Shown here one piece after another: positions 1-11,130 of a stretch of DNA of 11,130 nt; positions within the stretch are counted from its first letter, which is position 1, and each line of letters begins with the position of its first letter. The translations under genes and the position numbers were made by a program. Under the pieces are notes generated by a model, which was given only the letters and a program-made list of their open reading frames with translations, searched no databases and was not told the DNA's origin. The DNA is taken from positions 1 through 11,130 of the forward strand of contig JBILDU010000095.1 of assembly GCA_044352465.1 (NCBI GenBank), in the 5' to 3' direction. Origin of the DNA: Bdellovibrionota bacterium. GTDB taxonomy: Bacteria > Bdellovibrionota_C > UBA2361.

Positions 1-198
1 GAGATCGCTCACGACATCGTCTCCCGGGGGATCTGTCTCGCTGGCGGGGGCGCGCTCTTGAAGGGGCTCGCTGAGCGCCTTCACCGAGAGACCGGTGTGC
101 CCTTCCACCGAGCCCAAGACCCGCTGAGCTGTGTCGTGCGTGGGGTGGGGCAGGTAGTCGACAATCTAAAAGATATGCGGGTGGTCTGTATCAACTGA
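1..198 (+). CDS. mreB: MreB-family actin-like rod-shape protein, C-terminal fragment (5' end outside window)
   Basis: Not in the ORF track. Frame 1 translates to EIAHDIVSRGICLAGGGALLKGLAERLHRETGVPFHRAQDPLSCVVRGVGQVVDNLKDMRVVCIN*, matching the MreB C-terminus (DI..RGI.L.GGGA.L.GL...L..ETG.P...A.DPL.CV..G.G). TGA at 196-198. Confidence 0.92.
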   Translation, partial: EIAHDIVSRGICLAGGGALLKGLAERLHRETGVPFHRAQDPLSCVVRGVGQVVDNLKDMRVVCIN

Positions 199-865
199 CC
201 GCCTTGCTGGGCTTTCCCGCTTCGGCCGGGGAAAGGTGCTGAACGACGTCGGTCGTTCGCCCGATAATCGTATCAGCCTCGTGAAGATATTTTGCCTCGA
301 GCGAGGTGGTGACAGCGAGACAGCGCATGCCCGCGAGTTTGGCGGCGGAGATGCCGAGGGGCGCATTCTCGACGACGAGGCACGCGTGAGGAGATACTCC
401 CAGTTTTTCGGCGCACCGCAAAAAAGGCTCAGGATCAGGTTTGCCCCGCGTGCATTCGTCCGCGGTCACGAGGGCATCGAACGTGTTGAGAAACGGTTCG
501 GTCGCGGGATTGAGCAGGCGGCGGCGCATGCCCCCCGAGACAAGGCCAACCTTGAAGCCTTGGCTGCGAAGTTGAGGTATGAGGGCCTCCACGCCTGGAT
601 AGAACGAGAAGTGGTTGTGCGCTTGGTAGTGCGCGTCTTTCGCTGCACCAACGCGCGGTCCAGCCTCGGGATCTTTGCCGTAACGAGCCAAGATAGTGGC
701 GGCGAGTTCCGCGGTTTTCTTGCCCTCGAGGAGGCAACATTCGGTTCGCTCGGGGGCGATACCGTGTTCCGAGAAGGCGGCTTGCCACGCTCGAAAGTTA
801 TCGTCGATCGTGTCGCCGATGACGCCGTCAAAGTCGAACAGAATCGCCCGTATCTGCGTTGTCAC
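191..865 (-). CDS. HAD-superfamily hydrolase/phosphatase (beta-phosphoglucomutase/CbbY-like, subfamily IA)
   Basis: Motif I ILFDFDGV, motif II VSGG, GKPDPEPF and VVENAPLGI.AA..AGM. GTG start lies 14 nt after the rne stop, so probably co-transcribed. Confidence 0.92.
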   Translation of the reverse strand: MTTQIRAILFDFDGVIGDTIDDNFRAWQAAFSEHGIAPERTECCLLEGKKTAELAATILARYGKDPEAGPRVGAAKDAHYQAHNHFSFYPGVEALIPQLRSQGFKVGLVSGGMRRRLLNPATEPFLNTFDALVTADECTRGKPDPEPFLRCAEKLGVSPHACLVVENAPLGISAAKLAGMRCLAVTTSLEAKYLHEADTIIGRTTDVVQHLSPAEAGKPSKAVS

Positions 866-879
866 GAGCCTGCGCGTTG

Positions 880-2685
880 TTAACGGTTTTGCTTCCCCTT
901 GCCGGGAGTGGTTGGCCTTGCGGCCGTCGTGTCCCCGCCGGTGTCTTTCTCTGCTGTCGGCGCTGCGGCGTCGGCGCTTCCGCCTTCGGTCCGTCGGCGG
1001 AGTCGGGGGCGAAAGCGAAGACGGCGGTGTTTAATCCGATCGTGGCGAGCCTCGGTCGAGCTCTCCGAGGCATCTTTCGCCGCAGTCTGTTCCTCATCCG
1101 CGATCTCATCGAGATCGCCGTCCTCTCCCTCGTCCTCTTCGGGCTCTTCCTTGATCGGTGGCTTCACCGCCGCTGGTGGCGGTGGCGCGACCTCTCCGGG
1201 AGCCAGCTTCTTGGACTCAAGCTCAAACTCGTATTCGTCTTGGGTCAGACGTCCGTCAGCGAGGATGTAAATGTGGACCTGATACTTAGCCTCGAGTCGG
1301 GCAAGCTCGCCCTTCTTGTTGTTGAGGAGGAACAGGGCTGGGCCGGGGGCGAGGCGCGCTTTCACGAGCGAGACATGTCCGACGACGACCGCTGATTGGA
1401 TTTTGCGGAGGACCTCAAGCGCCACGAGCTCAGGGTTCTTCACCTTGCCAGTAGCGTGACAGTGGGTGCATCCGAGGTGGCTTTGACTCGCGAGGGAGGC
1501 GCGGAGCCGTTGGCGCGACATCTCCATGAGTCCGAACTTCGAGATCCGTCCCAATTCTATCCGGGCTTTGTCGAGTTTTAGTGCATCCCGTAGTTTGCGC
1601 TCGACGTTCGCCTTGTGGCGTTTATCGATCATATCGATGAAGTCGATCACGATGAGGCCGCCAAGATCGCGCAGGCGTAGTTGGCGGGCGATCTGATCGG
1701 CTGCCTCCATGTTCGTTCGATAGGCAGTGTCCTCGATGTTATGTCCCGCCGTCGCTTTCCCCGAGTTCACGTCGATCGCGACAAGAGCTTCGAGCGAATC
1801 GATGACGATGGCACCACCTGAGCGGAGTTTGACCTCTTTCTTCAGGGTGTCGCCGACCTGGTCATCGATGTTCGCATACGCGAAGAGAGGCTGCTCGCTC
1901 TCGAATAACTTCACCCGCGAGCGGTAGCGGGGCATCACTTCACCTACGAATTCTTTGACCCGGCGGTATGTCTCCGGATCGTCGATCAAGATCTCGCGAA
2001 TCTCGGGAGTGAAGTAGTCGCGGATAACCCGGGTCGCCAGATCGCTCTCTTTGTACAGCGTCGCCGGGCTTTGGGCGGTCTGCGCTTCGGTGAGGATGCG
2101 CTCCCATAATTTGAGCTGCAACGAGAGATCGCGTGAAAGTTCGCTTAAAGAACGGTCGAGTCCGGCGGTGCGCACGATCATCCCGATGCCGAGTGGCATC
2201 TCGAGCTCTTGGGCGAGTCGGCGTAGGCGATTGCGCTGTTCGCTGTCGCTAATCTTGCGCGAAATCCCACCGCGGTCGCTTCCCGGCATGACGACGAGAT
2301 ATCGCCCCGGGAGGGAGAGGTAGGTCGTCAGGGTTGCCCCTTTCAGTTCGCGTTCCTCTTTCACGACTTGGACTACAATCTCTTGGCCAGCCTCGAGGAC
2401 GTCTTGGATCAACACGCGGCCGTGGCGATCGCCACCCCGACCGTTCCGAAAATATGCCGGATGGATGTCGTTGATCTGCAGAAATCCGTTACGGCTTGTG
2501 CCGATATCAACGAACGCAGCCTGAAGGCTCGGCTCGATACGCGAGATGCGCGCCTTGTAGATATTGCCTTTAAGCTTTTTCCCGACGTGGGATTCAATCT
2601 CGAGCTCGGTGAGGTTGTTATCCTCGGTAATCGCGATACGGCATTCCTCGGGGTGTACCGCATTGATAAGCATTCGCCGATCCAT
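880..2685 (-). CDS. rne: Ribonuclease E/G (Rne/Rng family) with short disordered C-terminal tail
   Basis: N-terminus RRMLINAVHPEECRIA; S1 domain GNIYKARISRIEPSLQAAFVDIG; KGATLTT; catalytic IDVNSG and LRLRDLGGLIVIDFIDM; ISKFGLMEMSRQR; Zn-link CTHC; about 110 aa low-complexity tail. AAGG upstream of the ATG. Confidence 0.95.
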   Translation of the reverse strand: MDRRMLINAVHPEECRIAITEDNNLTELEIESHVGKKLKGNIYKARISRIEPSLQAAFVDIGTSRNGFLQINDIHPAYFRNGRGGDRHGRVLIQDVLEAGQEIVVQVVKEERELKGATLTTYLSLPGRYLVVMPGSDRGGISRKISDSEQRNRLRRLAQELEMPLGIGMIVRTAGLDRSLSELSRDLSLQLKLWERILTEAQTAQSPATLYKESDLATRVIRDYFTPEIREILIDDPETYRRVKEFVGEVMPRYRSRVKLFESEQPLFAYANIDDQVGDTLKKEVKLRSGGAIVIDSLEALVAIDVNSGKATAGHNIEDTAYRTNMEAADQIARQLRLRDLGGLIVIDFIDMIDKRHKANVERKLRDALKLDKARIELGRISKFGLMEMSRQRLRASLASQSHLGCTHCHATGKVKNPELVALEVLRKIQSAVVVGHVSLVKARLAPGPALFLLNNKKGELARLEAKYQVHIYILADGRLTQDEYEFELESKKLAPGEVAPPPPAAVKPPIKEEPEEDEGEDGDLDEIADEEQTAAKDASESSTEARHDRIKHRRLRFRPRLRRRTEGGSADAAAPTAEKDTGGDTTAARPTTPGKGKQNR

Positions 2686-3009
2686 AAACTTCGCCTTTTA
2701 GTGCGAACCAGGAGCCGGCCCTCGGAAAAGTTCCACGACGATAAGCTTTGTCGGAGAGACTTGTATCCGAACCTTGAGGCTGAGTGCTTATCCCCCCGGA
2801 GAGCCCTTGTTCGGCTAGTAAATGGGGGAACACGCGGCCTACACCGAAACCCTCGCGATGGAGGGAAAGGGCGTTAAAATAGAGGCCAGCCTGGTTCATG
2901 TTAAGTGAACAGTAAACGGGTTATGAAAAATCTTAGTCCGAACGGCTACCTGTTAAAGGGGACGTCTCAACTGAACGATACAACCCTATAGCAGCGACTT
3001 CCGAACGTT

Positions 3010-3034
3010 TTTCCGCGGTGTAACACCGCGGAAA
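3010..3034. repeat. Perfect inverted repeat (12-bp arms, 1-nt spacer) in the divergent rne/FHA intergenic region
   Basis: TTTCCGCGGTGT-A-ACACCGCGGAAA. Extends to ACG (3005-3007)/CGT (3035-3037) with a 2-nt bulge. Function (operator or RNA hairpin) unknown. Confidence 0.8.
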
Positions 3035-3194
3035 CGTAAGGCAGGATAACACAAACCGAGCGGAACTTTCTACTTATATAGACGTCTTGGAGTGTTAAAG
3101 GGTGCTTAAATGAGTCCGCTCGAGTAAATCGACCCCTCAAGTCGGTGCAGATGGGGCCGGTTACTAGAACGACGTTTAAAACAAAGTTTAACTT

Positions 3195-3545
3195 ATGGTG
3201 GATACCGAGGGTGCAAGGCTTGTGGTTCTTCGGGGGAACTCCGCTGGCAAGAGCTTTGCGATCACTGAGGGCAAGAACCTCGTCGGCCGGTGGGACCCCG
3301 AGACCGGGGCATTCCCCGAAGTTGACCTTGAGGCTGAGGATGTCGATGCAAAGGTGTCCCGTAAGCACGCTGTCATCGATCGTCAGGGCTCCGCTTGCTT
3401 TATCGAGGATGCCGGGAGCCTCAACGGAACCTACATCAACCGAGGGCCGCGCTTAAAGGCGGGTGAGAGGGTGGCATTAAAGTCGGGTGACGAGGTCGTC
3501 ATCGGCAAGACCTTCTTACGGTTTGAGATGAACGAGTCTCCTTAA
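3195..3545 (+). CDS. Stand-alone FHA domain protein
   Basis: Canonical FHA motifs VGR, VSRKHA, IEDAGSLNGTYIN and LKSGDEVVIG; pThr-binding residues intact. Confidence 0.93.
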   Translation: MVDTEGARLVVLRGNSAGKSFAITEGKNLVGRWDPETGAFPEVDLEAEDVDAKVSRKHAVIDRQGSACFIEDAGSLNGTYINRGPRLKAGERVALKSGDEVVIGKTFLRFEMNESP

Positions 3546-3589
3546 TGGCGCGGGAGTCCGTAGCTCGGAGCTCCGGATTGATTTGCGCA

Positions 3590-3611
3590 GAGAAGGCTCG
3601 CTCAGCTTCTC
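3590..3611. terminator. Possible hairpin between convergent FHA and receiver genes
   Basis: GAGAA(G)GCT-cgctc-AGCTTCTC bulged stem next to the receiver gene stop. No U-tract, so weak. Confidence 0.2.
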
Positions 3612-3612
3612 C

Positions 3613-3993
3613 CTAGGTCGGAAGCCCGTTCTTCGCCAAAAGCGTTTCGACATGCTTTAAGAGCACCGCGGGCTTGCATGGTTTGGTCAGGACGAGGTCA
3701 CCACCCGCATCCAGCGCTTCTTGATGCACCTCGGGATCGTCGAGCGCCGTGAACGCGACTATCGGCACGGTGATCCCTTTGGCGCGGATCTCCTTAATGC
3801 ACGACTGGCCGTTCATCTTCGGCATCATGAGGTCGATTAAGATAACATCGGGCGCTACTTCTTCAACACAGCCCAGGGCTGAGATCCCATCGGCACGACG
3901 GATTACCTCAAAGCCCTTGTCCTCAAAAAGGAGGTCGACGATGTCGAGCGCTGTCATGTCATCGTCGATAACTAGTATCTTTCGTGCGGTCAT
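3613..3993 (-). CDS. Single-domain response regulator (CheY-like receiver)
   Basis: ILVIDDD acidic pocket, phospho-acceptor ILIDLMMP, VAFTA and LTKP; no output domain. ATG at 3993 preferred over GTG at 4029 because GGAGCAGGTGAT precedes it and the domain starts there. Confidence 0.92.
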   Translation of the reverse strand: MTARKILVIDDDMTALDIVDLLFEDKGFEVIRRADGISALGCVEEVAPDVILIDLMMPKMNGQSCIKEIRAKGITVPIVAFTALDDPEVHQEALDAGGDLVLTKPCKPAVLLKHVETLLAKNGLPT

Positions 3994-4345
3994 ATCACCT
4001 GCTCCGTACCCCGGTTGATCTGCATTCACCCGCTACCGGAACACGGGAAAAACATTCACATTCAAATGGATGCGCTTTGATGCTTTAACGTAGCACAAGA
4101 TTTAGCGCCTGAACCGGGGGAGCTTTCGTGCCGAACTTTCGGGGCGCTTATTTTGGTAGGTGAGACGATATTTGGTTCGAACGACAACCTCAGGGCGGCA
4201 TTACGGGTTGCCCCGATGCGAGAACCTTCGCGGCGCAAATTTCTGGAACTTCTTGGGATATCGTATCCTCCAATAAGAAGGTGCCCTACGTCTGTGTGGG
4301 GTGTATGTGCCTACCCGATAGGGGAGCTGCTGGGTTTAACGTGAT

Positions 4346-5686
4346 ATGTTCGCGCTCGAGATAAATTTTCAAGATGGGGTATCCCAGCCGGAGACGATCT
4401 TTATTCGTCGTCCGCAGGCGCTCATCGGTGCGTCCGACCACGCCCATGTGGTGGTCGAGGATATGCGCGACCTCGATTATCAGATCCGGCTCGTGCGGGA
4501 TCTGGGGCGTCGCTTTCGGTGTAAGCCGATGATGGCGCGATCTGAAGCACCGCTCCCCGCTTTTAGCGATGAACTGTACGATGGTTCGGCCACCCTCGAC
4601 CTGGGGAAAGTTCGCCTTCATATTACGGCGATCGATTGCGATCTTCTGCTCAAAGAAAATGAGGCGCCTGATCGAGCGGGCGTGCGGGTTTTACGGCAAG
4701 CCTTCGGGGCCGGAGCGCCGGTCTTTCCGGCGGTGGTCGTTCGGGGAGCCCAGCCGATGGTCGTGTCGTTTACTCCGGAACAGCCGATATACATCGGTCG
4801 CTCGAAGCAGTGTGCTTTGCGCCTTGATTCGGCAGATATATCGGCGCGGCATGCACGCATGGGCTATGAGCACGGTGAGTTTTGGATCGAGGATCTCGGT
4901 TCGACGAATGGCACGTTTGTGAACGACCAGCAGATCTCTGGTCGGGTGAACGTGCCCGCCGGGGAAACGATCGTATTGGGGCGAGAGGTCGCCGTCCTCG
5001 GGGTAACCTCCGAGGAGCAGATCGGACGAATGGTGCACGCTCCAACGGTCGTCGCCCGCCCGGTACCGCAGGAGACGGTGCTCTTCCCTGCGCTGGTCTC
5101 GCTCTCGCAAGTCGCCCGTCCAGCGCGGGTGCTGCTCAAGCCGGGAACGAAAGTAAGTATCGGACGGGATCCCAGTAGCGACATGTGGCTTGGTGCACCG
5201 CATATCTCAAGGCTTCACTGTGCAGTGACGATGACCGATACCGGGTCACTCGCCGTGAGCGACCACAGTACAAACGGGACCGGCTACGATGGCGGGGTGC
5301 TGAGGAAAGGGGATCTGCTGAATGTTGGCGCTACCCCCCGGGTGTTTGATTTCGGTGGCGGTGTCACGGTGGGATTATGTTTCACCGAACGTGAGGAAGA
5401 GACGTTTCGAGCCGCCGCCGGAAATTTACGGGCGTTCGCGCCACCGCGTGAGGTGGAGCCTCCGGCTCCCTGGGCGAAGGGGGAGGTCGCGGTGCGCCCC
5501 CGTGATGCCACTGCGGTTGCAGAGACCGGGGCGACGCAGCTGAAATCGGCTGGATTGTTGCACCGACTCGGTGAGCTTTATCGAGGTGTCGGGCTTGTCG
5601 GTAGGCTCGCCATGATTGCGGCGGTCGCGGTGCTGGCCGTCGTTCTCGTGGTGGTGGTGAATCTATTGATCCCGGTATTTAGTTGA
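4346..5686 (+). CDS. Multi-FHA domain protein with C-terminal transmembrane anchor (possible SctD/CdsD analogue)
   Basis: Two clear FHA domains (IYIGR..ISARHA..EDLGSTNGTFVN; SIGRD..ISRLHC..SDHSTNGT), a possible degenerate N-terminal FHA (ALIGASDHAHVVV), and a terminal hydrophobic helix LAMIAAVAVLAVVLVVVVNLLIPVF. Confidence 0.88.
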   Translation: MFALEINFQDGVSQPETIFIRRPQALIGASDHAHVVVEDMRDLDYQIRLVRDLGRRFRCKPMMARSEAPLPAFSDELYDGSATLDLGKVRLHITAIDCDLLLKENEAPDRAGVRVLRQAFGAGAPVFPAVVVRGAQPMVVSFTPEQPIYIGRSKQCALRLDSADISARHARMGYEHGEFWIEDLGSTNGTFVNDQQISGRVNVPAGETIVLGREVAVLGVTSEEQIGRMVHAPTVVARPVPQETVLFPALVSLSQVARPARVLLKPGTKVSIGRDPSSDMWLGAPHISRLHCAVTMTDTGSLAVSDHSTNGTGYDGGVLRKGDLLNVGATPRVFDFGGGVTVGLCFTEREEETFRAAAGNLRAFAPPREVEPPAPWAKGEVAVRPRDATAVAETGATQLKSAGLLHRLGELYRGVGLVGRLAMIAAVAVLAVVLVVVVNLLIPVFS

Positions 5687-5745
5687 TTTTTAGAGCAAAG
5701 GTTTTCGCCGCTCGTTGCAGCGGTACTTTTTAGGAGCGTTGAATC

Positions 5746-6984
5746 ATGGCTACAGATAGCACAGAGCTGACTTTCGTGCGTTGCCCGTCGTGCCGGAGCC
5801 TGGTGCCCGCGGTATCGACTCGGTGCCGAATGTGTGGAGCAACCCTCGATGCGACGGCCGCCGATGAGGGCGATAAAGAGAAGAAGTCAGGGCGGGTGCG
5901 TCAACGTACGATGTCGGCACCCGATAGTGAGCTGAGCGCTACCGCAAGTCAGGTTCGTGAGGAGGCACCACCTCCGCCGCCGCCACCATCAAGCTCGGGA
6001 GCCTCGGCTGCGACCGACCTTGAGGACGATCCACTCGGTGACTATCTCGATTCTATCGATGAGGTCCCGGCGGTAAAAGCTGAGCCGCCTCCGGCGCCAG
6101 TGAAGCCTGCCGCTCCGCCGCCCCCACCGGCTGCACCGCCGGTGACAGCGCCGGTGGCGGAGAGTCGGTCGACGATCGCTGCTGATATCGACCTCGATGA
6201 CGATCTTGATATTGAAAGCGCGCCCCGTGAGAGCGCGGAGCGCCCCAAGGTTGTTGTTGAGACCGGTGGTAGGCGCCCGTTTGGTCAGGGCAAGCCGGGG
6301 GGGCTCTCTTTTAGCCGGCCCCGTGAGGATCGACCGCGCGATGAGCGGCCACGTGAGGAGGTAAAGCCGGTAGCGGCGCGACCCGCGCAGCCACCGCCAG
6401 CCCCACCGCGGGCGCCATCTCCCACTCCGGAGCGCGCCGAGCCTCAATCCCGCGAAGTCCAACCGAAGCGACCGGAGAGTCGGCCTGAGCCCCGTCGAGA
6501 GGAACGGCGGGAGGAGCGTCGAGAGGAACGGCGAGAGGAACGGCCACGTGAGACAGCGTCTCAAGCCCAACCCCACGGTGGGCGTCCCGCTCAACCTCAG
6601 GCTCGTGCGAGCGAAAGCTCCCGGCGGGTTGAGAGTGCCGCTGGAAGGCTGTACGGTTGGCTCGTCAGCTATGCTGACCCGGATGGTAAATCGATTGAGT
6701 TACGTGAAGGAAAGTTCTTCGTCACGGGGAATAGCCTCAAAGAGAGCGACCTCATCGTGAATGATAAGAGTATTTCAACCCCACATGCGTTGGTCTCTGT
6801 TGGGGGTGAGACCGGTTTGCGAATTCAGGATTTGATGAGCGATCGCGGGGTTTTCCTTCGCCACGGTGAGAGCGGGGCCTATCAGCGCCGCGAGGAGCCG
6901 TGTACGGTGGAGCATGGCGACTGGGTACGCTTTGGAGATGTTGAATTTCTGGTGTGCCTGATCGCATATCCAGGCGTACGGTAG
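5746..6984 (+). CDS. Zinc-ribbon / Pro- and charge-rich disordered linker / degenerate FHA domain protein
   Basis: CPSC-x10-CRMC at the N-terminus; long Pro/acidic/Arg-Glu linker; C-terminal GWLV..ISTPHA..IQDLMSDRGVF..HGDWVRFGDVEF FHA fold. AGGAG RBS upstream. Confidence 0.85.
   Translation: MATDSTELTFVRCPSCRSLVPAVSTRCRMCGATLDATAADEGDKEKKSGRVRQRTMSAPDSELSATASQVREEAPPPPPPPSSSGASAATDLEDDPLGDYLDSIDEVPAVKAEPPPAPVKPAAPPPPPAAPPVTAPVAESRSTIAADIDLDDDLDIESAPRESAERPKVVVETGGRRPFGQGKPGGLSFSRPREDRPRDERPREEVKPVAARPAQPPPAPPRAPSPTPERAEPQSREVQPKRPESRPEPRREERREERREERREERPRETASQAQPHGGRPAQPQARASESSRRVESAAGRLYGWLVSYADPDGKSIELREGKFFVTGNSLKESDLIVNDKSISTPHALVSVGGETGLRIQDLMSDRGVFLRHGESGAYQRREEPCTVEHGDWVRFGDVEFLVCLIAYPGVR
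6316..6360 (+). repeat. In-frame 15-bp degenerate tandem repeat x3 (RPRED/RPRDE/RPREE)
   Basis: cggccccgtgaggat cgaccgcgcgatgag cggccacgtgaggag. Confidence 0.7.
6493..6540 (+). repeat. In-frame 12-bp tandem repeat x4 encoding (RREE)4
   Basis: cgtcgagaggaa cggcgggaggag cgtcgagaggaa cggcgagaggaa. Confidence 0.85.
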
Positions 6985-7017
6985 CGTACACTGCATAACC
7001 ACCAAGAGGGATGGGTA

Positions 7018-7875
7018 ATGGTAGTTTGGCGAACGATAGCGATGCTCGTGGTGGCGGTTTGGCTCGCAGCGTGTAGCTCGACGCCGATCGCCCAAGACAT
7101 CGCCCAAAGTCAGGCCAACGAGATCGTGGCGTTGCTCGCCGACAACGGAATCAGCGCGGTGGCCCACAAAAGTGGGGGTGGGCAAGGCCGCTATACCGTT
7201 GAGGTTGCGGCCGAGCACTACACCGCCGCGGTCTCGTTGCTCCATCGCCACGGCTTACCAGGGGAAGTGAAGCGCTCCTTCGCTGATATGGTCGCCCCGC
7301 AGGGGCTTATTCCGAATTCCCGCGAAATGGAGGCGCTTCGCCTTGATCGAGCTCTGGGGGTCGAACTCGAGGAGACCTTACTTAATTATCCCGGTGTCGT
7401 CGCCGCGCGGGTGATCGTGCGCTCGAGCTTCCTTAAAGAGGGTGCGACGCCAGGGGTATCCGCAGTGATTCAGCACCGCGCTGAAAGCCCGGTGAACGCC
7501 GAGGCTTTAAGTGCAGTTATCAGTCGCGCGGTCCCAGGTGTTGCACCGGAGCGAATCCTTGTTGCCCTGGAAGTTGCGGCGCCCCGTGGTGGTGGAGATA
7601 GTGGTGTCGAAGGGGCCGTAAATCTTGCGGGTGAGGTGGTACGGATTCCGCTTGTCCCCTTTCTATTCTTACGCGTTCCGAAAGACGAATATAATTATTT
7701 CGTTTTTGGATTAGTGGGTGGTCTGCTGGTCCTCGGGATTGTTGGTGCGATCGTCGGCTATTGGTGGGGATTTTACCACCGTGGCAAAGGTGGATTTGAA
7801 GAGAATGGGGGAGAGCCCCGACCGCTCCGGCTTGATCGAACGCGCCGGGAGATCCCGGAGATCGAGGGAAGGTAA
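7018..7875 (+). CDS. sctJ: Type III secretion inner-membrane ring lipoprotein, SctJ (YscJ/HrcJ/EscJ) family
   Basis: Lipobox LAAC; QANEIVALLADNGI; AAVSLLHRHGLP; SFADMV.PQGLIP..E..R...ALG.ELEETL....GVVAARV; C-terminal TM helix plus cytoplasmic tail. At 285 aa it is too short for FliF, and FliF is not a lipoprotein. Confidence 0.9.
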   Translation: MVVWRTIAMLVVAVWLAACSSTPIAQDIAQSQANEIVALLADNGISAVAHKSGGGQGRYTVEVAAEHYTAAVSLLHRHGLPGEVKRSFADMVAPQGLIPNSREMEALRLDRALGVELEETLLNYPGVVAARVIVRSSFLKEGATPGVSAVIQHRAESPVNAEALSAVISRAVPGVAPERILVALEVAAPRGGGDSGVEGAVNLAGEVVRIPLVPFLFLRVPKDEYNYFVFGLVGGLLVLGIVGAIVGYWWGFYHRGKGGFEENGGEPRPLRLDRTRREIPEIEGR

Positions 7876-7884
7876 CGGATACCT

Positions 7885-8106
7885 ATGGATACCCAACGGT
7901 TTCGAAATCTGCCCCCGCGACAACGCGCCTTGGTGGCGTTAGCGGTACTCCTCGATGGTCGTGAGGGTTCGCTTTATCTTGAGAACGATTCGCTCAACGG
8001 CCCGGCTTTGGCGCGCGCCGCGGGGGATCTGTCCGGTCTCGAGCTTGAGCTGCGGTTGCCGTTCGCGGGGACGTTGTTGCGACAGGCTTTACGCGAGGTG
8101 AAGTAA
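7885..8106 (+). CDS. Small hypothetical protein in the sctK/fliG position; N-terminus resembles FliG N-terminal helix
   Basis: 73 aa ORF tightly packed in the operon (9-nt and 6-nt gaps). NLPPRQRALVALAVLLDG is reminiscent of FliG-N (L.g.qKAAiLL..Lg). The CDS is likely real; the family call is tentative. Confidence 0.55.
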   Translation: MDTQRFRNLPPRQRALVALAVLLDGREGSLYLENDSLNGPALARAAGDLSGLELELRLPFAGTLLRQALREVK

Positions 8107-8112
8107 TCCCCG

Positions 8113-8454
8113 GTGGTGGACGACGGAGCGAACGGGCAAGAGGAGTTGGGGCGATTACTCGCGGAGCTTCTCGTTGAGCTTGGTCGACGGGAATCGGTTG
8201 TCGCTTCGCTGGAGGGAGATCTGCGGCGGTGCGAGGAGCAACTGCGCGAGATGTCGGGAGAGCGCGGCGTGCGGCGGGGGGATGCCCGGCGATTGATCGC
8301 CGCGGAACAGCTTCGTCGGAGGCTCACGGGAGATGCCCGTAATCTTCGCAAGCGGCTCGCTGAGGCGGTCGCCGATGTGGAGCGAGCGCGCGAGCGCCGG
8401 GCGGTGCTCGAGGCGGATATTGAATCAAGCGTAGCGCTTGAGGAGACGGAATAG
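8113..8454 (+). CDS. Coiled-coil protein, putative SctO/FliJ-like stalk
   Basis: 113 aa, R/E/L/A-rich with two long predicted helices, located immediately upstream of sctQ. Assignment is by composition and synteny only. Confidence 0.55.
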   Translation: MVDDGANGQEELGRLLAELLVELGRRESVVASLEGDLRRCEEQLREMSGERGVRRGDARRLIAAEQLRRRLTGDARNLRKRLAEAVADVERARERRAVLEADIESSVALEETE

Positions 8455-8456
8455 GG

Positions 8457-9494
8457 ATGGAGTCGGAAAATCACACCGAGGGCACGAACCTCTCCCCGTG
8501 GGAGCCTGGGCGCTTTATGCGTACCGCTTCCGCGAGTGAGGTAAAGTTGTCGCGTGGATTTCTCCGGTGCCGTCCGGAGAGATGGTTTCCTGGGTTCGCG
8601 GCGCAGTGGCTCCCGCTGGGTCATTCCCTCGGGGTTGAGATCAAGATGATCGAGGCAAAGCCGGTACTGCATTCTCCTCTTGAGCAGGCGGCAAGCTTTG
8701 TCGGTTCGATCGATGGTGAGGCGATCGGATTCTCGATTGATCCCTCCTCCGCGCGAGTCGTGACCGAAGCGATAGCCCCTGGTGTGATGCGTGGAGCGGA
8801 CGAGGGGGCCGGCTCGGTGGTGCTCGAGTACCTGGCTCGGCGTCTGCTGACGAGCTTAGCCGCCGCGTGGACGGGGCCGCAGTCCTCGCTTGTACGGTTC
8901 GAGCCGGAGATGAAGCTCGACGAAGTGGGCGCGGTCGGAGACGTCCGGATAAGCTTCTCCGTGAACGGAACACCGGCATCTGTCGTCGTATCGCTCGGAC
9001 GCTTCTTGGTTGAGCGGCTCGATAACCTTTGGCGGCGGCAGATCCATTCAACCGCCCGAGCGGTCGAAGCGGGTAGTGTCGTCGCGCTGGAGATCGCGCA
9101 GCTCGCTGTGCCCCCCTCGATGCTCGGTGATTACCTCAAGAGTGGCACCCTTATCGACCTTGAAGCGCGGGCGGGTGACACGATGACCCTGCGCTCCGGC
9201 ACCAAGGCGTGGCAGTTAGTGCGGGGGTGTGTTTCGAATGGCAACTACGCATTCGAGATGATAGCGGCGGGCGGTCCCTTCCCGAGTCTTCCTGAGGGTA
9301 CGACCCGGCTCTCCTTCAGCCTCGGCGCGACAAAGCTCGACGGCACCGTCATCGCCGAGCTCGGTCAGTCTGGCGCGATGTGGGATACGGCTATCCCCGC
9401 GACCGATCGGGTTGAGCTCCTTATTAACGGGGAATCGGTAGGGGAGGGGCGACTCGGCCTCTACGAGGGACGCTTTGCCGTGATGGTGGCCTGA
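8457..9494 (+). CDS. sctQ: C-ring/sorting-platform protein, SctQ / FliM-FliN family (SPOA domains)
   Basis: C-terminal SPOA RLSFSLGATKL...VELLINGESVGEGRLGLYEGRFAVMV, preceded by a second degenerate SPOA (VALEIAQLAV..LKSGTLIDL); located upstream of sctR. Confidence 0.85.
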   Translation: MESENHTEGTNLSPWEPGRFMRTASASEVKLSRGFLRCRPERWFPGFAAQWLPLGHSLGVEIKMIEAKPVLHSPLEQAASFVGSIDGEAIGFSIDPSSARVVTEAIAPGVMRGADEGAGSVVLEYLARRLLTSLAAAWTGPQSSLVRFEPEMKLDEVGAVGDVRISFSVNGTPASVVVSLGRFLVERLDNLWRRQIHSTARAVEAGSVVALEIAQLAVPPSMLGDYLKSGTLIDLEARAGDTMTLRSGTKAWQLVRGCVSNGNYAFEMIAAGGPFPSLPEGTTRLSFSLGATKLDGTVIAELGQSGAMWDTAIPATDRVELLINGESVGEGRLGLYEGRFAVMVA

Positions 9495-9616
9495 GCTCGT
9501 TGCGGAAGGATTCCGCATCGCCTGGAACTGCTCAAACCTGCCGCACTTTGGTCGATCGTCCTTGGGCCAAAATAAGGGATAGCCAGCACCGGGAGCGTTC
9601 ACCTATCATCCTCGAT

Positions 9617-10213
9617 ATGGATCTCTCTCCCTATCTTGCTGGTATCATTGCGCTAATTCTTTTCACCGCGTTTGTAAAGATAGCCACCGTGCTGAATATC
9701 GTGCGGGTGGGCTTGGGTCTCGACGGGGTCGGGTTCGGCGTTTCGATTCTTGCTGTGGCGATCGCGCTGGCCCTCGTATCCGTTTCCCCCGAAATGAGGG
9801 CGTTGGGTGGGATCGATGCGTTCTTCGGGGGGGGCGGGCCGAGCCGACTTTCCGGATTCGAGGAGAAGATGGCGCCGTTTCTTCAGCGTCACGCTGACCC
9901 CGGGCTGCTTGAACGTTTAGCCGGTTTGGTTCGTGAGGGACAGCCGCAAGAAGGTGTTGCGCCGCAGAATGGTGGTGTCCTTATTGCAGCGTTTCTTTTG
10001 ACCGAGCTCAAAGAGGCTTTTGAGCTCGGGCTTATCGTGTTGGTGCCGCTCCTCGTGATCGATCTCCTCGTGGTTCATACGTTGATGTTGTTGGGCGTTA
10101 CCCAATTGGCGCACGTCGTCGTGGCGCTTCCTCTCAAGATTTTGCTTTTCTTCGCAGTCGACGGTTGGGGGCTCATCGCGGAGAAGCTTTTGAAGACGTA
10201 TACGGGGGGCTAG
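9617..10213 (+). CDS. sctR: Type III export gate protein SctR/FliP family, divergent
   Basis: TAFVKIATVLNIVRVGLG; FLQRHA; LIAAFLLTELKEAFELG; LVIDLLV; LPLKILLFFAVDGW. ATG at 9617 preferred because the 39 codons from TTG 9500 are not SctR-like. Confidence 0.92.
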   Translation: MDLSPYLAGIIALILFTAFVKIATVLNIVRVGLGLDGVGFGVSILAVAIALALVSVSPEMRALGGIDAFFGGGGPSRLSGFEEKMAPFLQRHADPGLLERLAGLVREGQPQEGVAPQNGGVLIAAFLLTELKEAFELGLIVLVPLLVIDLLVVHTLMLLGVTQLAHVVVALPLKILLFFAVDGWGLIAEKLLKTYTGG

Positions 10214-10218
10214 GCGGC

Positions 10219-10452
10219 ATGGAACCGATCCTTATCGAGGGCCTCAAAGCGATATTTCTCTCCGCGGTGCCGGTGCTGGTGGTAGTGGTCGTCGCAAGTC
10301 TCCTCGTTGCAGGACTGCAGTCGGCCTTGACGGTGAATGAGCCGGCGCTCGGGTATGCGGTTCGAGTTGGCGCGTTAGTCGCGGTAGCATACCTCCTCCT
10401 CCCGTCGATTATTGAAACTCTCTCTGCTCTTGCATTACAGGCATGGCGCTAG
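10219..10452 (+). CDS. sctS: Type III export gate protein SctS/FliQ family, divergent
   Basis: 77 aa helical hairpin P.L.......LLVA.LQSALTVNEPALGYAVR, aligning by eye to QAxTQIQEQTLxFxxK. ATG 5 nt after the sctR stop. Confidence 0.85.
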   Translation: MEPILIEGLKAIFLSAVPVLVVVVVASLLVAGLQSALTVNEPALGYAVRVGALVAVAYLLLPSIIETLSALALQAWR

Positions 10453-11060
10453 TGCCCCTTCTTATCGCCATCGGTCTCCTCGGTTTGATGCCGATATGGT
10501 TCGTGCCAACGCTGGCTTTGATGCTTGCGTGGTGGAGCATGCATCCCGGTAGCTCGCTCAGCGAGGTGGCGCTCATAGGGGGGGCCGTTGGGCTTGCTGC
10601 ACCGCTGAGTGTCGGGCTTGCAGGTGCAATCCTCGACCGAGTTTGTGTTGCAGGTGCGTTAGTCCATCGGGGCGGAGTCGCCCCGTTGTTTCGAACGTGT
10701 GGACTCGTGCTCGGGGGGGCAATCCTGTTTCAGTCGAGCGCCCCCTTCGAATTAATGGTGATGGTTCGTGATCTGATGGCCCGGGGTGACACACTTGATC
10801 TTTGGCGGGTGGTTGCCAAGGTGGGTGCAGTGGTTTGCTTCTGTGGCGGGCTTCTCGCGCTCGTAGCTCTCGGAGCCATCGTTCTTGTTGAGCTTCCGCT
10901 GCGGTGGTGCACGTCGGCGTCTCGGGTTGCCCCGCTTGACCTCTCCTTGAGCGCTCTGCGGCCGTTAATCGTCGTGGGGGTGGCCGCGGTTCTTTTTCAT
11001 CTCGCCACGGCTTTTGTGCTCCGAGAGACGGCACCAGGCCTCCTCGGGGGGATACCATGA
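10443..11060 (+). CDS. sctT: Type III export gate protein SctT/FliR family, highly divergent and short
   Basis: Polytopic hydrophobic 205 aa protein between sctS and sctU. Residual AGAILD (AGxxID) and VELPL...LSLSALR (cf. D..LG...fsls.piK). Overlaps sctS by 10 nt. Mainly a synteny call. Confidence 0.65.
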   Translation: MALVPLLIAIGLLGLMPIWFVPTLALMLAWWSMHPGSSLSEVALIGGAVGLAAPLSVGLAGAILDRVCVAGALVHRGGVAPLFRTCGLVLGGAILFQSSAPFELMVMVRDLMARGDTLDLWRVVAKVGAVVCFCGGLLALVALGAIVLVELPLRWCTSASRVAPLDLSLSALRPLIVVGVAAVLFHLATAFVLRETAPGLLGGIP

Positions 11061-11130
11061 CCGAGCGGACCGAATGGCCGACCCCTGAGAAGCTCGCACG
11101 GCTCCGTGAGGAGGGGATCGTCCACTACAG
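11057..11130 (+). CDS. sctU: SctU/FlhB export switch protein, N-terminal fragment (runs off window)
   Basis: Not in the ORF track. ATGA overlap with the sctT stop; translates MTERTEWPTPEKLARLREEGIVHY, matching the EKTExPTxKKLxxARxxGxV N-terminal motif. Confidence 0.85.
   Translation, partial: MTERTEWPTPEKLARLREEGIVHY

Follow-up and report, generated by a model that had tools for sequence, protein, structure and literature searches.

A row of ten genes that runs from position 4346 to the end of an 11,130-bp stretch of Bdellovibrionota DNA (the window) probably encodes the core of a phospho-switched, needle-less machine of type III secretion system (T3SS) type that has no secretin of its own and is coupled to a Tad pilus. 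The window is an entire contig (C118) of a genome bin of 3.13 Mb in 170 contigs that is 94.9% complete. The row encodes the inner-membrane and cytoplasmic core of such a machine, namely, the SctJ ring, the SctQ pods, a divergent SctR/S/T gate, and the membrane domain of SctU, together with a conserved 73-amino-acid (aa) protein (o73) and a coiled-coil protein (cc113). All ten genes are on the plus strand and are separated by gaps of 2 to 59 nt or overlap, in the order P1, P2, SctJ, o73, coiled coil, SctQ, SctR, SctS, SctT, and the start of SctU, as follows.

4346-5686, plus strand: P1, a tail-anchored triple-FHA protein (Pfam FHA, 100 bits in two stretches; Yop-YscD_cpl, 59 bits)
5746-6984, plus strand: P2, a Zn-ribbon–FHA protein (Pfam FHA, 27 bits at residues 328-397; N-terminal CxxC...CxxC read from the translation)
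7018-7875, plus strand: SctJ-type inner-membrane ring lipoprotein (PF01514, 54 bits; TIGR02544, 97 bits; cutoff, 162)
7885-8106, plus strand: o73, a conserved helical 73-aa protein (no Pfam or NCBIfam match)
8113-8454, plus strand: cc113, a coiled-coil protein (weak Pfam match to DUF7491 only, 16.7 bits)
8457-9494, plus strand: SctQ, a sorting-platform protein of 345 aa with a C-terminal SpoA (FliN-like) domain (FliMN_C, 33.8 bits at residues 285-344)
9500-10213, plus strand: open reading frame (ORF) of SctR, FliP family, with a probable start at 9617 (FliP, 107.7 bits)
10165-10452, plus strand: ORF of a divergent SctS, FliQ family, with a probable start at 10219 (Bac_export_3, 30.4 bits; NCBIfam fliQ, 21 bits)
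10443-11060, plus strand: polytopic membrane protein of 205 aa at the SctT position (predicted fold and position)
11057-11130, plus strand: 5' end of sctU, first 24 codons (translation)

The initial annotation had described these ten co-oriented, tightly packed genes from the DNA letters, and all were present. The T3SS derivation that it proposed was borne out by Pfam and NCBIfam matches of SctJ, SctQ, SctR, and SctS. SctR and SctS score above their Pfam cutoffs and below the NCBIfam equivalog cutoffs, the best NCBIfam match of SctR being NF009438 of the EscR/YscR/HrcR subfamily (104.5 bits; cutoff, 179). Since every component of the row scores below its curated NCBIfam cutoff, the row proteins are very divergent members of their families. 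SctJ carries a lipobox (LAAC), a C-terminal transmembrane (TM) helix, and a short cytoplasmic tail of variable, poorly conserved sequence, and the stop codon of sctT and the start codon of sctU overlap in ATGA.

The sctT call in the initial annotation held up by position and by a predicted FliR-like fold and found no support at the sequence level. Pfam recognized none of eight orthologues, the orthologue profile gave only chance matches to light-harvesting proteins in the PDB, and hhalign against a profile of FliR and the SctT of a second, nonflagellar set in the same genome (two sequences) returned a probability of 0.1. An AlphaFold (AF2) model built from 19 orthologues (predicted local distance difference test [pLDDT], 79) had FliR chains as its top three Foldseek matches (E values, 0.2 to 0.5; TM scores, 0.46 to 0.53). 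In VIA, the eight best rows were FliR/SpaR chains (Z, 9.8 to 7.5; 169 to 181 of 205 residues aligned; root mean square deviation, ~5 Å), a Z of this size not being decisive by itself for helical bundles. On the strength of the FliR-like predicted fold and the position between sctS and sctU, the 205-aa protein was accepted as a SctT that is recognizable by fold and position only.

The evidence for a link to a Tad pilus comes from the location of SctV. Three FHIPEP genes were found in the genome, encoding the flagellar FlhA (C117, beside FlhB/FliR), a protein of 605 aa (C168, beside a second SctJ), and a protein of 714 aa (C47). The last of these lies in a locus with the order kinase C terminus, CpaE-like ATPase, CpaB/RcpC, CpaF-type ATPase, TadB, TadC, SctV (714 aa), 818-aa kinase-like protein, and thioredoxin-like protein. 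With Pfam matches to AAA_31, RcpC, T2SSE, and T2SSF (twice), a match to the TadA-family ATPase of 210 bits (cutoff, 373), and an ORF for a Flp-type pilin with a G-ATLVEY motif between cpaE and cpaB, this operon reads as a Tad/Flp (type IVc) pilus gene set; no RcpA/CpaC-type secretin was found in it. SctV directly follows tadC and is itself followed by the kinase-like gene in all five genomes examined (that of the window, G080, G018, G023, and G051). In G051, a genome of another order in three contigs, the Tad operon runs on one strand straight into the row over ~26 kb, with PP2C, an FHA protein, a Hanks kinase, CpaE, CpaB, CpaF, TadB, TadC, SctV, and the kinase-like protein in the 5' part and P1, P2, SctJ, o73, coiled coil, SctQ, SctR, SctS, SctT, SctU, an 84-aa protein (o84), and a tetratricopeptide repeat (TPR) protein in the 3' part. 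Because the two are contiguous in G051, the row of the window and the Tad/SctV operon represent two parts of what was ancestrally a single cluster.

A profile of the Tad-linked SctV matched with at least 612 bits in at least 95 of the 124 genomes of the phylum-level group, and flagellar FlhA scored 560 to 587 bits. The SctV of C47 itself is closer to hrcV (571 bits) than to FlhA (523 bits), both scores being below the cutoffs. By NCBIfam, 32 of 65 near representatives pass the SctV cutoff, 2 pass that of FlhA, 1 has FlhA as its best match, and 30 are intermediate. A tree (FastTree, LG+gamma, rooted on the FlhA group) was built from 146 sequences, namely, 139 of the 150 best representatives (at least 600 aa) and 7 from this analysis. 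None of the 32 certified SctVs falls in the clade of the Tad-linked SctV (65 leaves; support, 1.0; stem, 0.43); all of them are in its sister clade of 70 leaves (support, 0.72), as is the SctV of C168, and the two clades together are separate from FlhA (support, 0.94), in a sample that is biased to the neighbors of the query and in which Myxococcales/Chlamydiales sequences are not identifiable. It is plausible from this separate and well-supported clade that the Tad-linked SctV is a new family. Atlas matches were to generic SctQ or SctV clusters only.

Genes of a potential phospho-switch accompany both halves of the cluster. The kinase upstream of CpaE matched Pkinase with 180 to 188 bits in all three genomes tested. 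This Hanks kinase keeps the Lys, HRD, and DFG motifs of kinases. In the family of 805 to 831 aa whose gene follows that of SctV, none of the three is present, and HEAT repeats are found; given this lack, the 818-aa membrane protein after SctV is a pseudokinase. In the genome of the window, C114 ends with the PP2C gene, and C47 opens with the sequence for the C terminus of the kinase. That the kinase, the PP2C, the pseudokinase, and at least four FHA proteins belong to the system, and that the system would be under phosphothreonine control, appears well founded on gene content and conserved residues. A paralogous Hanks kinase, 46% identical to that of the Tad cluster, is encoded at C134:9507-14584 beside CpaE-like, receiver, and CpaF-like ORFs and may mark a second kinase-linked Tad-like locus.

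P1 opens with a degenerate FHA-like module, which is followed by two FHA domains of canonical type and a linker that varies; its last ~30 residues form a TM helix, with zero or one residue behind it in ~30 orthologues. The GR...SxxH...NG positions of the second and third FHA domains (FHA2 and FHA3) are invariant in all nine aligned orthologues. A search of the PDB with the P1 profile returned 37 matches, all of them FHA domains and none labeled YscD, PrgH, MxiG, or EscD. Among these matches were GarA/OdhI, Rad53, Rv0020c, EmbR, and Rv1747, which are phosphothreonine readers, and a weak match (26.6 bits) that is presumably the FHA domain of the chlamydial CT664. As P1 is held at the inner membrane by its tail and is otherwise wholly cytoplasmic, it cannot build a periplasmic ring. 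From its sequence, it looks like the cytoplasmic half of SctD (FHA and one TM helix), encoded at the sctD position and without the periplasmic part; a genome-wide search with PF16693, run without a positive control, gave no match. P1 thus shares with the SctD family (YscD, PrgH, and MxiG) the cytoplasmic FHA followed by a single TM helix and the location of its gene beside sctJ, but it differs in having no periplasmic ring-building domain and three FHA modules. The FHA domains of injectisome SctD proteins have been reported to be without phosphothreonine-binding residues, whereas FHA2 and FHA3 of P1 keep them; the chlamydial CdsD carries extra FHA domains. P2 is composed of a four-Cys ribbon, a disordered linker of ~270 residues rich in Pro, Glu, and Arg, and a C-terminal FHA domain.

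As the window is an entire contig, the break in sctU is an effect of the assembly and has no biological cause. Contig C33 opens inside an SctU-like ORF (C33:2-523) that matches positions 72 to 215 of the 335 positions of Bac_export_2 and then reaches a stop codon, after which come genes for o84 (84 aa), the TPR protein (144 aa), and two sigma-70-family proteins. The order SctT-SctU-o84-TPR-sigma-sigma is found on one contig of the same genus (L055) and also in G018, G020, and G012. No overlap of 11 to 60 nt was found between the end of C118 and other contigs, and it is from this synteny that C33 is taken to continue C118 across a gap of ~20 codons. The full-length SctU of the same genus has 217 aa, its end coinciding with the expected start of the FlhB/SctU cytoplasmic domain. 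In 14 of 15 loci, orthologues are 157 to 284 aa long, the outlier of 360 aa (L074) overlapping the sctT call. Profile coverage and orthologue lengths thus indicate that the C-terminal autocleaving (NPTH) switch domain is absent from SctU. A stand-alone ORF with the FlhB/SctU C-terminal switch domain only (52 bits) was observed at C101:25280-25492 on the minus strand and could supply the domain missing from the short SctU proteins.

The 84-aa protein o84 has 10 invariant columns in 26 sequences, and its gene always immediately precedes the TPR gene; a fusion of both, as a single ORF of 235 aa, occurs in G023. A complex model of o84 and the TPR protein scored 0.87, versus 0.01 for the best control. 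Among solved complexes, 116 of 157 came up to this mark, as did 2 of 215 mismatched pairs. Model runs agreed in at least 93% of contacts with a partner pLDDT of at least 78, and the conserved P-L-L-x-L-L-P stretch (residues 14 to 30) and the C-terminal helix of o84 were placed on the TPR surface. Model and gene fusion support a predicted binding of o84 to its TPR partner. When o84 was searched against the PDB, matches arose solely from the fused sequence of G023, in its TPR portion. The TPR protein scored above cutoff with TPR Pfam families but gave only weak matches to chaperone models, namely, TIGR02552 of the SycD/LcrH class with 29.6 bits (cutoff, 104.8) and SctY with 28.5 bits (cutoff, 70). 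The pair may represent a chaperone with an early substrate or an SctV-binding adaptor. The two sigma-70-family genes on C33 (L013) are divergently placed (1701-2516, minus strand; 2689-3582, plus strand) and have weak FliA/WhiG-like matches. A sigma pair is also present in G001, G018, and G051, and it lies ~6 kb off in G030; these proteins are possible dedicated regulators of the system.

No Pfam match was obtained for the small ORFs of the row. The o73 protein has 11 invariant columns and an AF2 model of three to four helices (pLDDT, 91). A search of the PDB with the o73 profile found nothing, the best Foldseek match was a FliG chain with an E value of 3.4 and a probability of only 0.14, and the wide VIA search did no better than a Z of 5.1, for unrelated helical proteins. 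The idea that o73 might serve the SctJ tail as an adaptor resembling FliG-N was considered and dropped as unsupported, because no fold or profile match was informative and the SctJ tail is poorly conserved. The coiled-coil protein varies in length from 85 to 174 aa and was found by iterative search in most loci; by its position, it is a possible SctO/FliJ-like stalk.

The row is conserved throughout the lineage. An SctQ orthologue was found in 40 of 41 relatives, covering 21 families of the order, and the SctQ profile found one in 115 of the 124 genomes of the phylum-level group (more than 30 families, all of one class) and in 71 of its 73 high-quality genomes. The same gene order recurs, with intact ORFs, across 40 distinct loci, which far exceeds chance. 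With each gene counted only where the flank suffices, and with loci L109 and L110 outside the analysis, P1 was present in 28 of 28 loci, P2 in 29 of 29, SctJ in 37 of 38, o73 in 38 of 39, o84 in 26 of 29, and the TPR gene in 27 of 29; one of the "missing" o84 genes is fused to the TPR gene. Ratios of nonsynonymous to synonymous substitution (dN/dS) were calculated by the Nei-Gojobori method against same-genus orthologues and are rough, as dS was 1.0 to 2.1 and thus near saturation. They were 0.04 for o73, 0.06 for SctJ, 0.06 for the TPR protein, 0.07 for o84, 0.09 for SctQ, 0.09 for SctR, 0.14 for SctS, 0.18 for the coiled-coil protein, 0.22 for SctT, and 0.40 for SctU. The row is functional and ancient and is neither a relic nor an island. 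In family f28 of the same class (G052 to G057; six genomes, 82 to 96% complete), the Tad-linked SctV type is absent and SctQ matches are weak or lacking, and this family may have lost or exchanged the entire system. In L051/L092 (G026), no SctJ ORF lies between an unusually long P2 (556 aa) and o73, and P1 has no terminal TM helix; this locus may be a rearranged or fused variant.

The genome encodes a flagellar set on separate contigs (C117 and C60). No rod, hook, or FliG genes were found in the row. A 1.8-Mb genome (G023; 92% complete) contains no flagellar-type FlhA or FliP and keeps both nonflagellar sets, the Tad/SctV operon, and the SctN-like ATPase; the system is thus not flagellar. The second nonflagellar set, on C136 (L014:1792-4476, 7755-7979, and 8225-9238), is better conserved than that of the row and comprises SctR (158.6 bits), SctS, SctT, and a 261-aa membrane part of SctU; behind these come a PAS-GAF histidine kinase, an FlhB-C-like protein on an ORF of its own, and an FHA protein. 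The second SctJ and the 605-aa SctV are on C168 (L016:7575-8432 and 10061-11878). The sole nonflagellar SctN-like ATPase is encoded at C107:1361-3403 on the minus strand (TIGR02546, 409 bits; cutoff, 605) together with a FliH/SctL-like gene, and this pair adjoins MurJ and flagellar hook genes (fliK/flgD/flgE-like ORFs). No gene for a secretin SctC was found beside the row or the Tad operon of this genome, the SctF family PF09392 had no match in it and likewise none in control genomes, no tip or translocon of a canonical injectisome was found in it, and SctI was not identified.

Several observations weigh against reading the row as a phospho-switched core that is coupled to a Tad pilus. The row and the Tad/SctV locus are unlinked in the order to which the window belongs, and it is from the gene order of a single distant genome (G051), together with co-occurrence, that physical coupling is proposed. 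The only two secretin genes of the genome are in rows that, by gene order and N-terminal motifs, were assigned as pilMNOPQ-like and gspDEF-pseudopilin-like, and a single SctN/SctL pair is available for two nonflagellar sets and is adjacent to neither in five genomes (G080, a single contig, was excluded from ATPase counts, with no FliI/SctN at 1e-60 and several row genes broken in its ORF calls). The export gate shows signs of degeneration. A Met-rich loop is a feature of FliP/SctR; the 21 SctR orthologues aligned retain PF(V)VIDLLVA and VDGW but have G-x-x-Q in place of this loop. SctT and SctU evolve fastest in the row, and SctU has no cytoplasmic switch domain. No SctR follows SctQ in 13 of 39 loci, and in six of the SctR-less loci (L075, L076, L079, L080, L084, and L085), o84 comes directly or within ~60 nt after SctQ. 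Similarly, 13 of 36 genomes of genus g11, among them genomes that are 99%, 95%, and 94% complete, match the SctR profile at paralogue level only (~1e-36 versus 1e-60 to 1e-76), and family f6 is alike; the score threshold is fuzzy in other orders, and hence no phylum-wide count is given. The g11 and f6 genomes without row-type SctR keep the Tad-linked SctV (839 to 871 bits) and SctQ. As the set is absent where P1 to SctQ, o84-TPR, and SctV are kept, export via the row SctRSTU is not essential to the conserved function, and either the second SctRSTU set substitutes for it or the conserved function needs no such gate. Finally, the link to predation is an analogy, and the system is known here from its genes alone.

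Three other explanations were considered. The T3SS-derived parts may no longer export, in which case SctV, SctJ, SctQ, and the FHA proteins would serve as a scaffold, regulator, or proton-driven energizer of the Tad pilus while SctRSTU is being lost. Such a conversion would fit the absence of the row SctRSTU where the rest is kept, the replaced loop of SctR, the truncated SctU, the relaxed constraint on SctT and SctU, and the invariable location of SctV inside the Tad operon (5/5 genomes) with no linked ATPase found. We nevertheless consider it unlikely, as purifying selection still acts strongly on SctR and SctS wherever they occur (dN/dS, 0.09 and 0.14), a chaperone-cargo-like o84-TPR pair is fixed in the row as it would be in an exporter, and genomes without the row SctRSTU keep the second set as a possible substitute. 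It is highly improbable that the row is decaying and functionless, a remnant of an ancestral T3SS or of an additional set of flagellar export genes. A relic could account for components that score below every curated cutoff, a SctT that is unrecognizable by sequence, a short SctU, and the loss of the row SctRSTU in some lineages, but this idea is contradicted by intact ORFs in a fixed order in 40 loci, by dN/dS values of 0.04 to 0.09 for SctJ, o73, SctQ, SctR, o84, and the TPR protein, by the presence of SctQ in 115 of 124 genomes from more than 30 families, and by the retention of the row in the 1.8-Mb genome of G023, which has no flagellar FlhA or FliP.

The initial annotation had favored a self-contained, minimal T3SS family in which FHA proteins take the structural place of the rod and needle. 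Much of what it had observed agrees with the present data. The genes of the row are tightly packed on one strand and are kept in relatives, and in the order to which the window belongs, no other secretion genes are linked to them. The linkage of FHA genes to sctJ, which had been named for checking, holds in relatives, with P1 and P2 fixed in the row. No needle, rod, or secretin gene was found in or after the row (in the row, on C33, and in the loci of relatives). Downstream, where a full T3SS complement might have lain, there are only the short SctU, the 84-aa gene, the TPR gene, and the two sigma-like genes, with nothing resembling sctV, sctN, sctL, sctC, or sctF on C33 or in the loci of relatives. 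The proposed phosphothreonine control is likewise in keeping with the canonical FHA residues and the kinase and PP2C of the cluster. The stand-alone character of the machine has to be given up, as a dedicated SctV is found in the Tad operon (5/5 genomes) and SctN/SctL elsewhere; this SctV type co-occurs with the row and is contiguous with it in G051. To our knowledge, no T3SS functions without SctV. Nor do FHA proteins occupy the place of rod and needle genes: P1 is at the sctD position, its FHA domains are signaling domains of the kind found in canonical phosphothreonine readers, and a cytoplasmic, tail-anchored protein is no substitute for a periplasmic rod or needle. A self-contained family is for these reasons quite improbable.

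For the preferred reading, that of a phospho-switched T3SS-like core coupled to a Tad pilus, we infer physical coupling, export activity, and an order of events as follows. A signal, probably contact with a cell or surface via the pilus or the pseudokinase, would activate the kinase, and the resulting phosphothreonines on machine components would be read by the FHA domains of P1 and P2. The FHA proteins would then recruit or lock the SctJ/SctQ/SctV platform beside the Tad platform, cargo such as o84, held by the TPR protein, would be exported through the inner membrane and passed on to the pilus or the periplasm, and PP2C would reset the switch. A role in contact-dependent killing may be suggested by analogy with the Myxococcus Kil/T3SS*. 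It is possible, if doubtful, that the two machines form a hybrid nanomachine in which the T3SS sorting platform and an SctV ring sit on the Tad platform, switched by kinase, pseudokinase, PP2C, and FHA proteins, with SctRSTU dispensable and with o84-type cargo leaving via the Tad pilus rather than a needle.

The closest known parallel is found in myxobacteria. A basal "Myxo" nonflagellar T3SS (NF-T3SS) with long and short loci and no secretin, SctF, tip, or translocon was described by Abby and Rocha in 2012, in Cystobacterineae only (PMC3459982). In M. xanthus, mxan_2434-2464 encode SctD, J, I, Q, RSTUV, N, and L and LcrH-like chaperones, and FHA proteins are found in the Kil clusters (PMC10433427). 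The T3SS* is recruited in a Kil-dependent manner, with joint working posed as a question (PMC12075869). Co-occurrence of T3SS* and Kil is stated to be restricted to Cystobacterineae (PMC10849154, PMC12428579), and the T3SS* annotation has been extended to Bradymonadia (PMC11509652). In the full-text literature, supplements aside, no T3SS-like system in Bdellovibrionota-type lineages and no sctV gene inside a tad operon were found described.

The system of the window, which was likened to the Myxococcus T3SS* by gene content and published descriptions, shares with it a T3SS derivation without secretin, needle, or translocon genes and the presence of SctJ, SctQ, SctRSTU(V), and TPR (LcrH-like) chaperones (PMC3459982, PMC10433427). 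As in T3SS*/Kil, the partner is a Tad-like pilus machine rich in FHA proteins, and the genes are chromosomal and vertically conserved (PMC10433427, PMC12075869, PMC3459982, PMC8460266). The long and short loci of myxobacteria are paralleled by the two nonflagellar sets of this genome. In contrast to T3SS*/Kil, the system occurs here in another, uncultured lineage, and whereas the two machines are in separate clusters in M. xanthus, sctV lies here inside the tad operon and all genes form one cluster in G051. The cluster of the Myxo group includes SctD, I, V, N, and L, whereas here the row ends after the TPR gene, SctV is with Tad, and SctN/SctL are elsewhere. Further differences from T3SS* are the protein at the SctD position without a periplasmic domain and the SctU without a C-terminal domain. 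Kil has the secretin KilC, whereas the Tad part has none adjoining here, and kinase, pseudokinase, and PP2C are in the cluster here.

Canonical injectisomes (Ysc, Inv-Mxi-Spa, Hrp, and other families) have homologous SctJ, Q, R, S, T (by fold), U (membrane part), and V proteins, the same sctQ-R-S-T-U order, and a TPR chaperone gene beside a small partner gene. The system described here differs from them in having no SctD periplasmic ring, no SctU autocleavage domain, scores that are all below the NCBIfam cutoffs, and an SctV outside the clade of the 32 NCBIfam-certified SctVs. With the PpkA/PppA/Fha1 proteins of type VI secretion systems, which are cited in PMC8460266, it shares a Hanks kinase, a PP2C, and FHA readers encoded with a secretion machine, and with the type VIIb secretion system, in a description forming part of PMC11217815, it shares a pseudokinase (EssB) as a membrane structural or sensing part and FHA domains. 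In contrast to both, the machine here is derived from T3SS and Tad, and its FHA readers are of two kinds, one with three FHA modules and a tail anchor and the other with a Zn ribbon and an FHA domain. What is new compared with Kil/T3SS* is the interleaving of the machines, the tail-anchored SctD-like FHA protein, the short SctU, the lack of an adjoining secretin, the separate SctV clade, and the loss of the gate in sublineages.

Upstream of the row, the window contains the following genes.

1-198: 3' end of mreB
191-865, minus strand: HAD hydrolase
880-2685, minus strand: rne (Pfam)
3195-3545, plus strand: small single-FHA protein of 116 aa (Pfam FHA, 53 bits)
3613-4029, minus strand: CheY-like, receiver-only response regulator, divergent from P1 (Pfam Response_reg, 87.9 bits)

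The row is thus chromosomal and, as had been claimed from the window, lies among core genes (mreB and rne), and it is conserved across the lineage. Orthologues of the CheY-like receiver (56 to 76% identity) are directly upstream of P1 in all eight fetched loci with enough flank. Those of the 116-aa FHA protein adjoin the row in several loci (e.g., L048, L050, L053, L071, L086, L089, and L108) and are frequent without being universal. A scan of positions 2600 to 4500 for promoters and terminators gave no signal exceeding the shuffled expectation. Of the 21 sequencing runs listed, 20 cover the stretch in part; the runs come from lake or freshwater metagenomes in 16 studies, and every one of them is DNA, with no RNA. 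The genomes of this lineage in public records are all metagenome-assembled genomes (MAGs), labeled Bdellovibrionota, Oligoflexia, Deltaproteobacteria, or Pseudomonadota bacterium, and no cultured member was seen among the cluster names and the 120 homologues listed, all of which were close relatives and MAGs.

A Tad/T3SS composite was not previously known in this lineage. In Myxococcus, Kil and the needle-less T3SS* colocalize at prey contacts, and in the 2025 literature, it is an open question how, and whether, they form one machine (PMC12075869, PMC12428579). The pairing of Tad and T3SS is kept in a second lineage, uncultured and deeply separate from the first, where it is written into gene order. 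This makes the one-machine idea testable with defined partners, namely, SctV with TadB/TadC, the FHA domains of P1 and P2 with phosphopeptides, and o84 with the TPR protein, and the lineages without the row SctRSTU are natural experiments. If the hybrid nanomachine proves true, it would be a new class of secretion apparatus and an ancestral-like genetic blueprint of the Myxococcus Kil/T3SS* partnership. The early, pre-injectisome history of type III secretion is widened by these findings.

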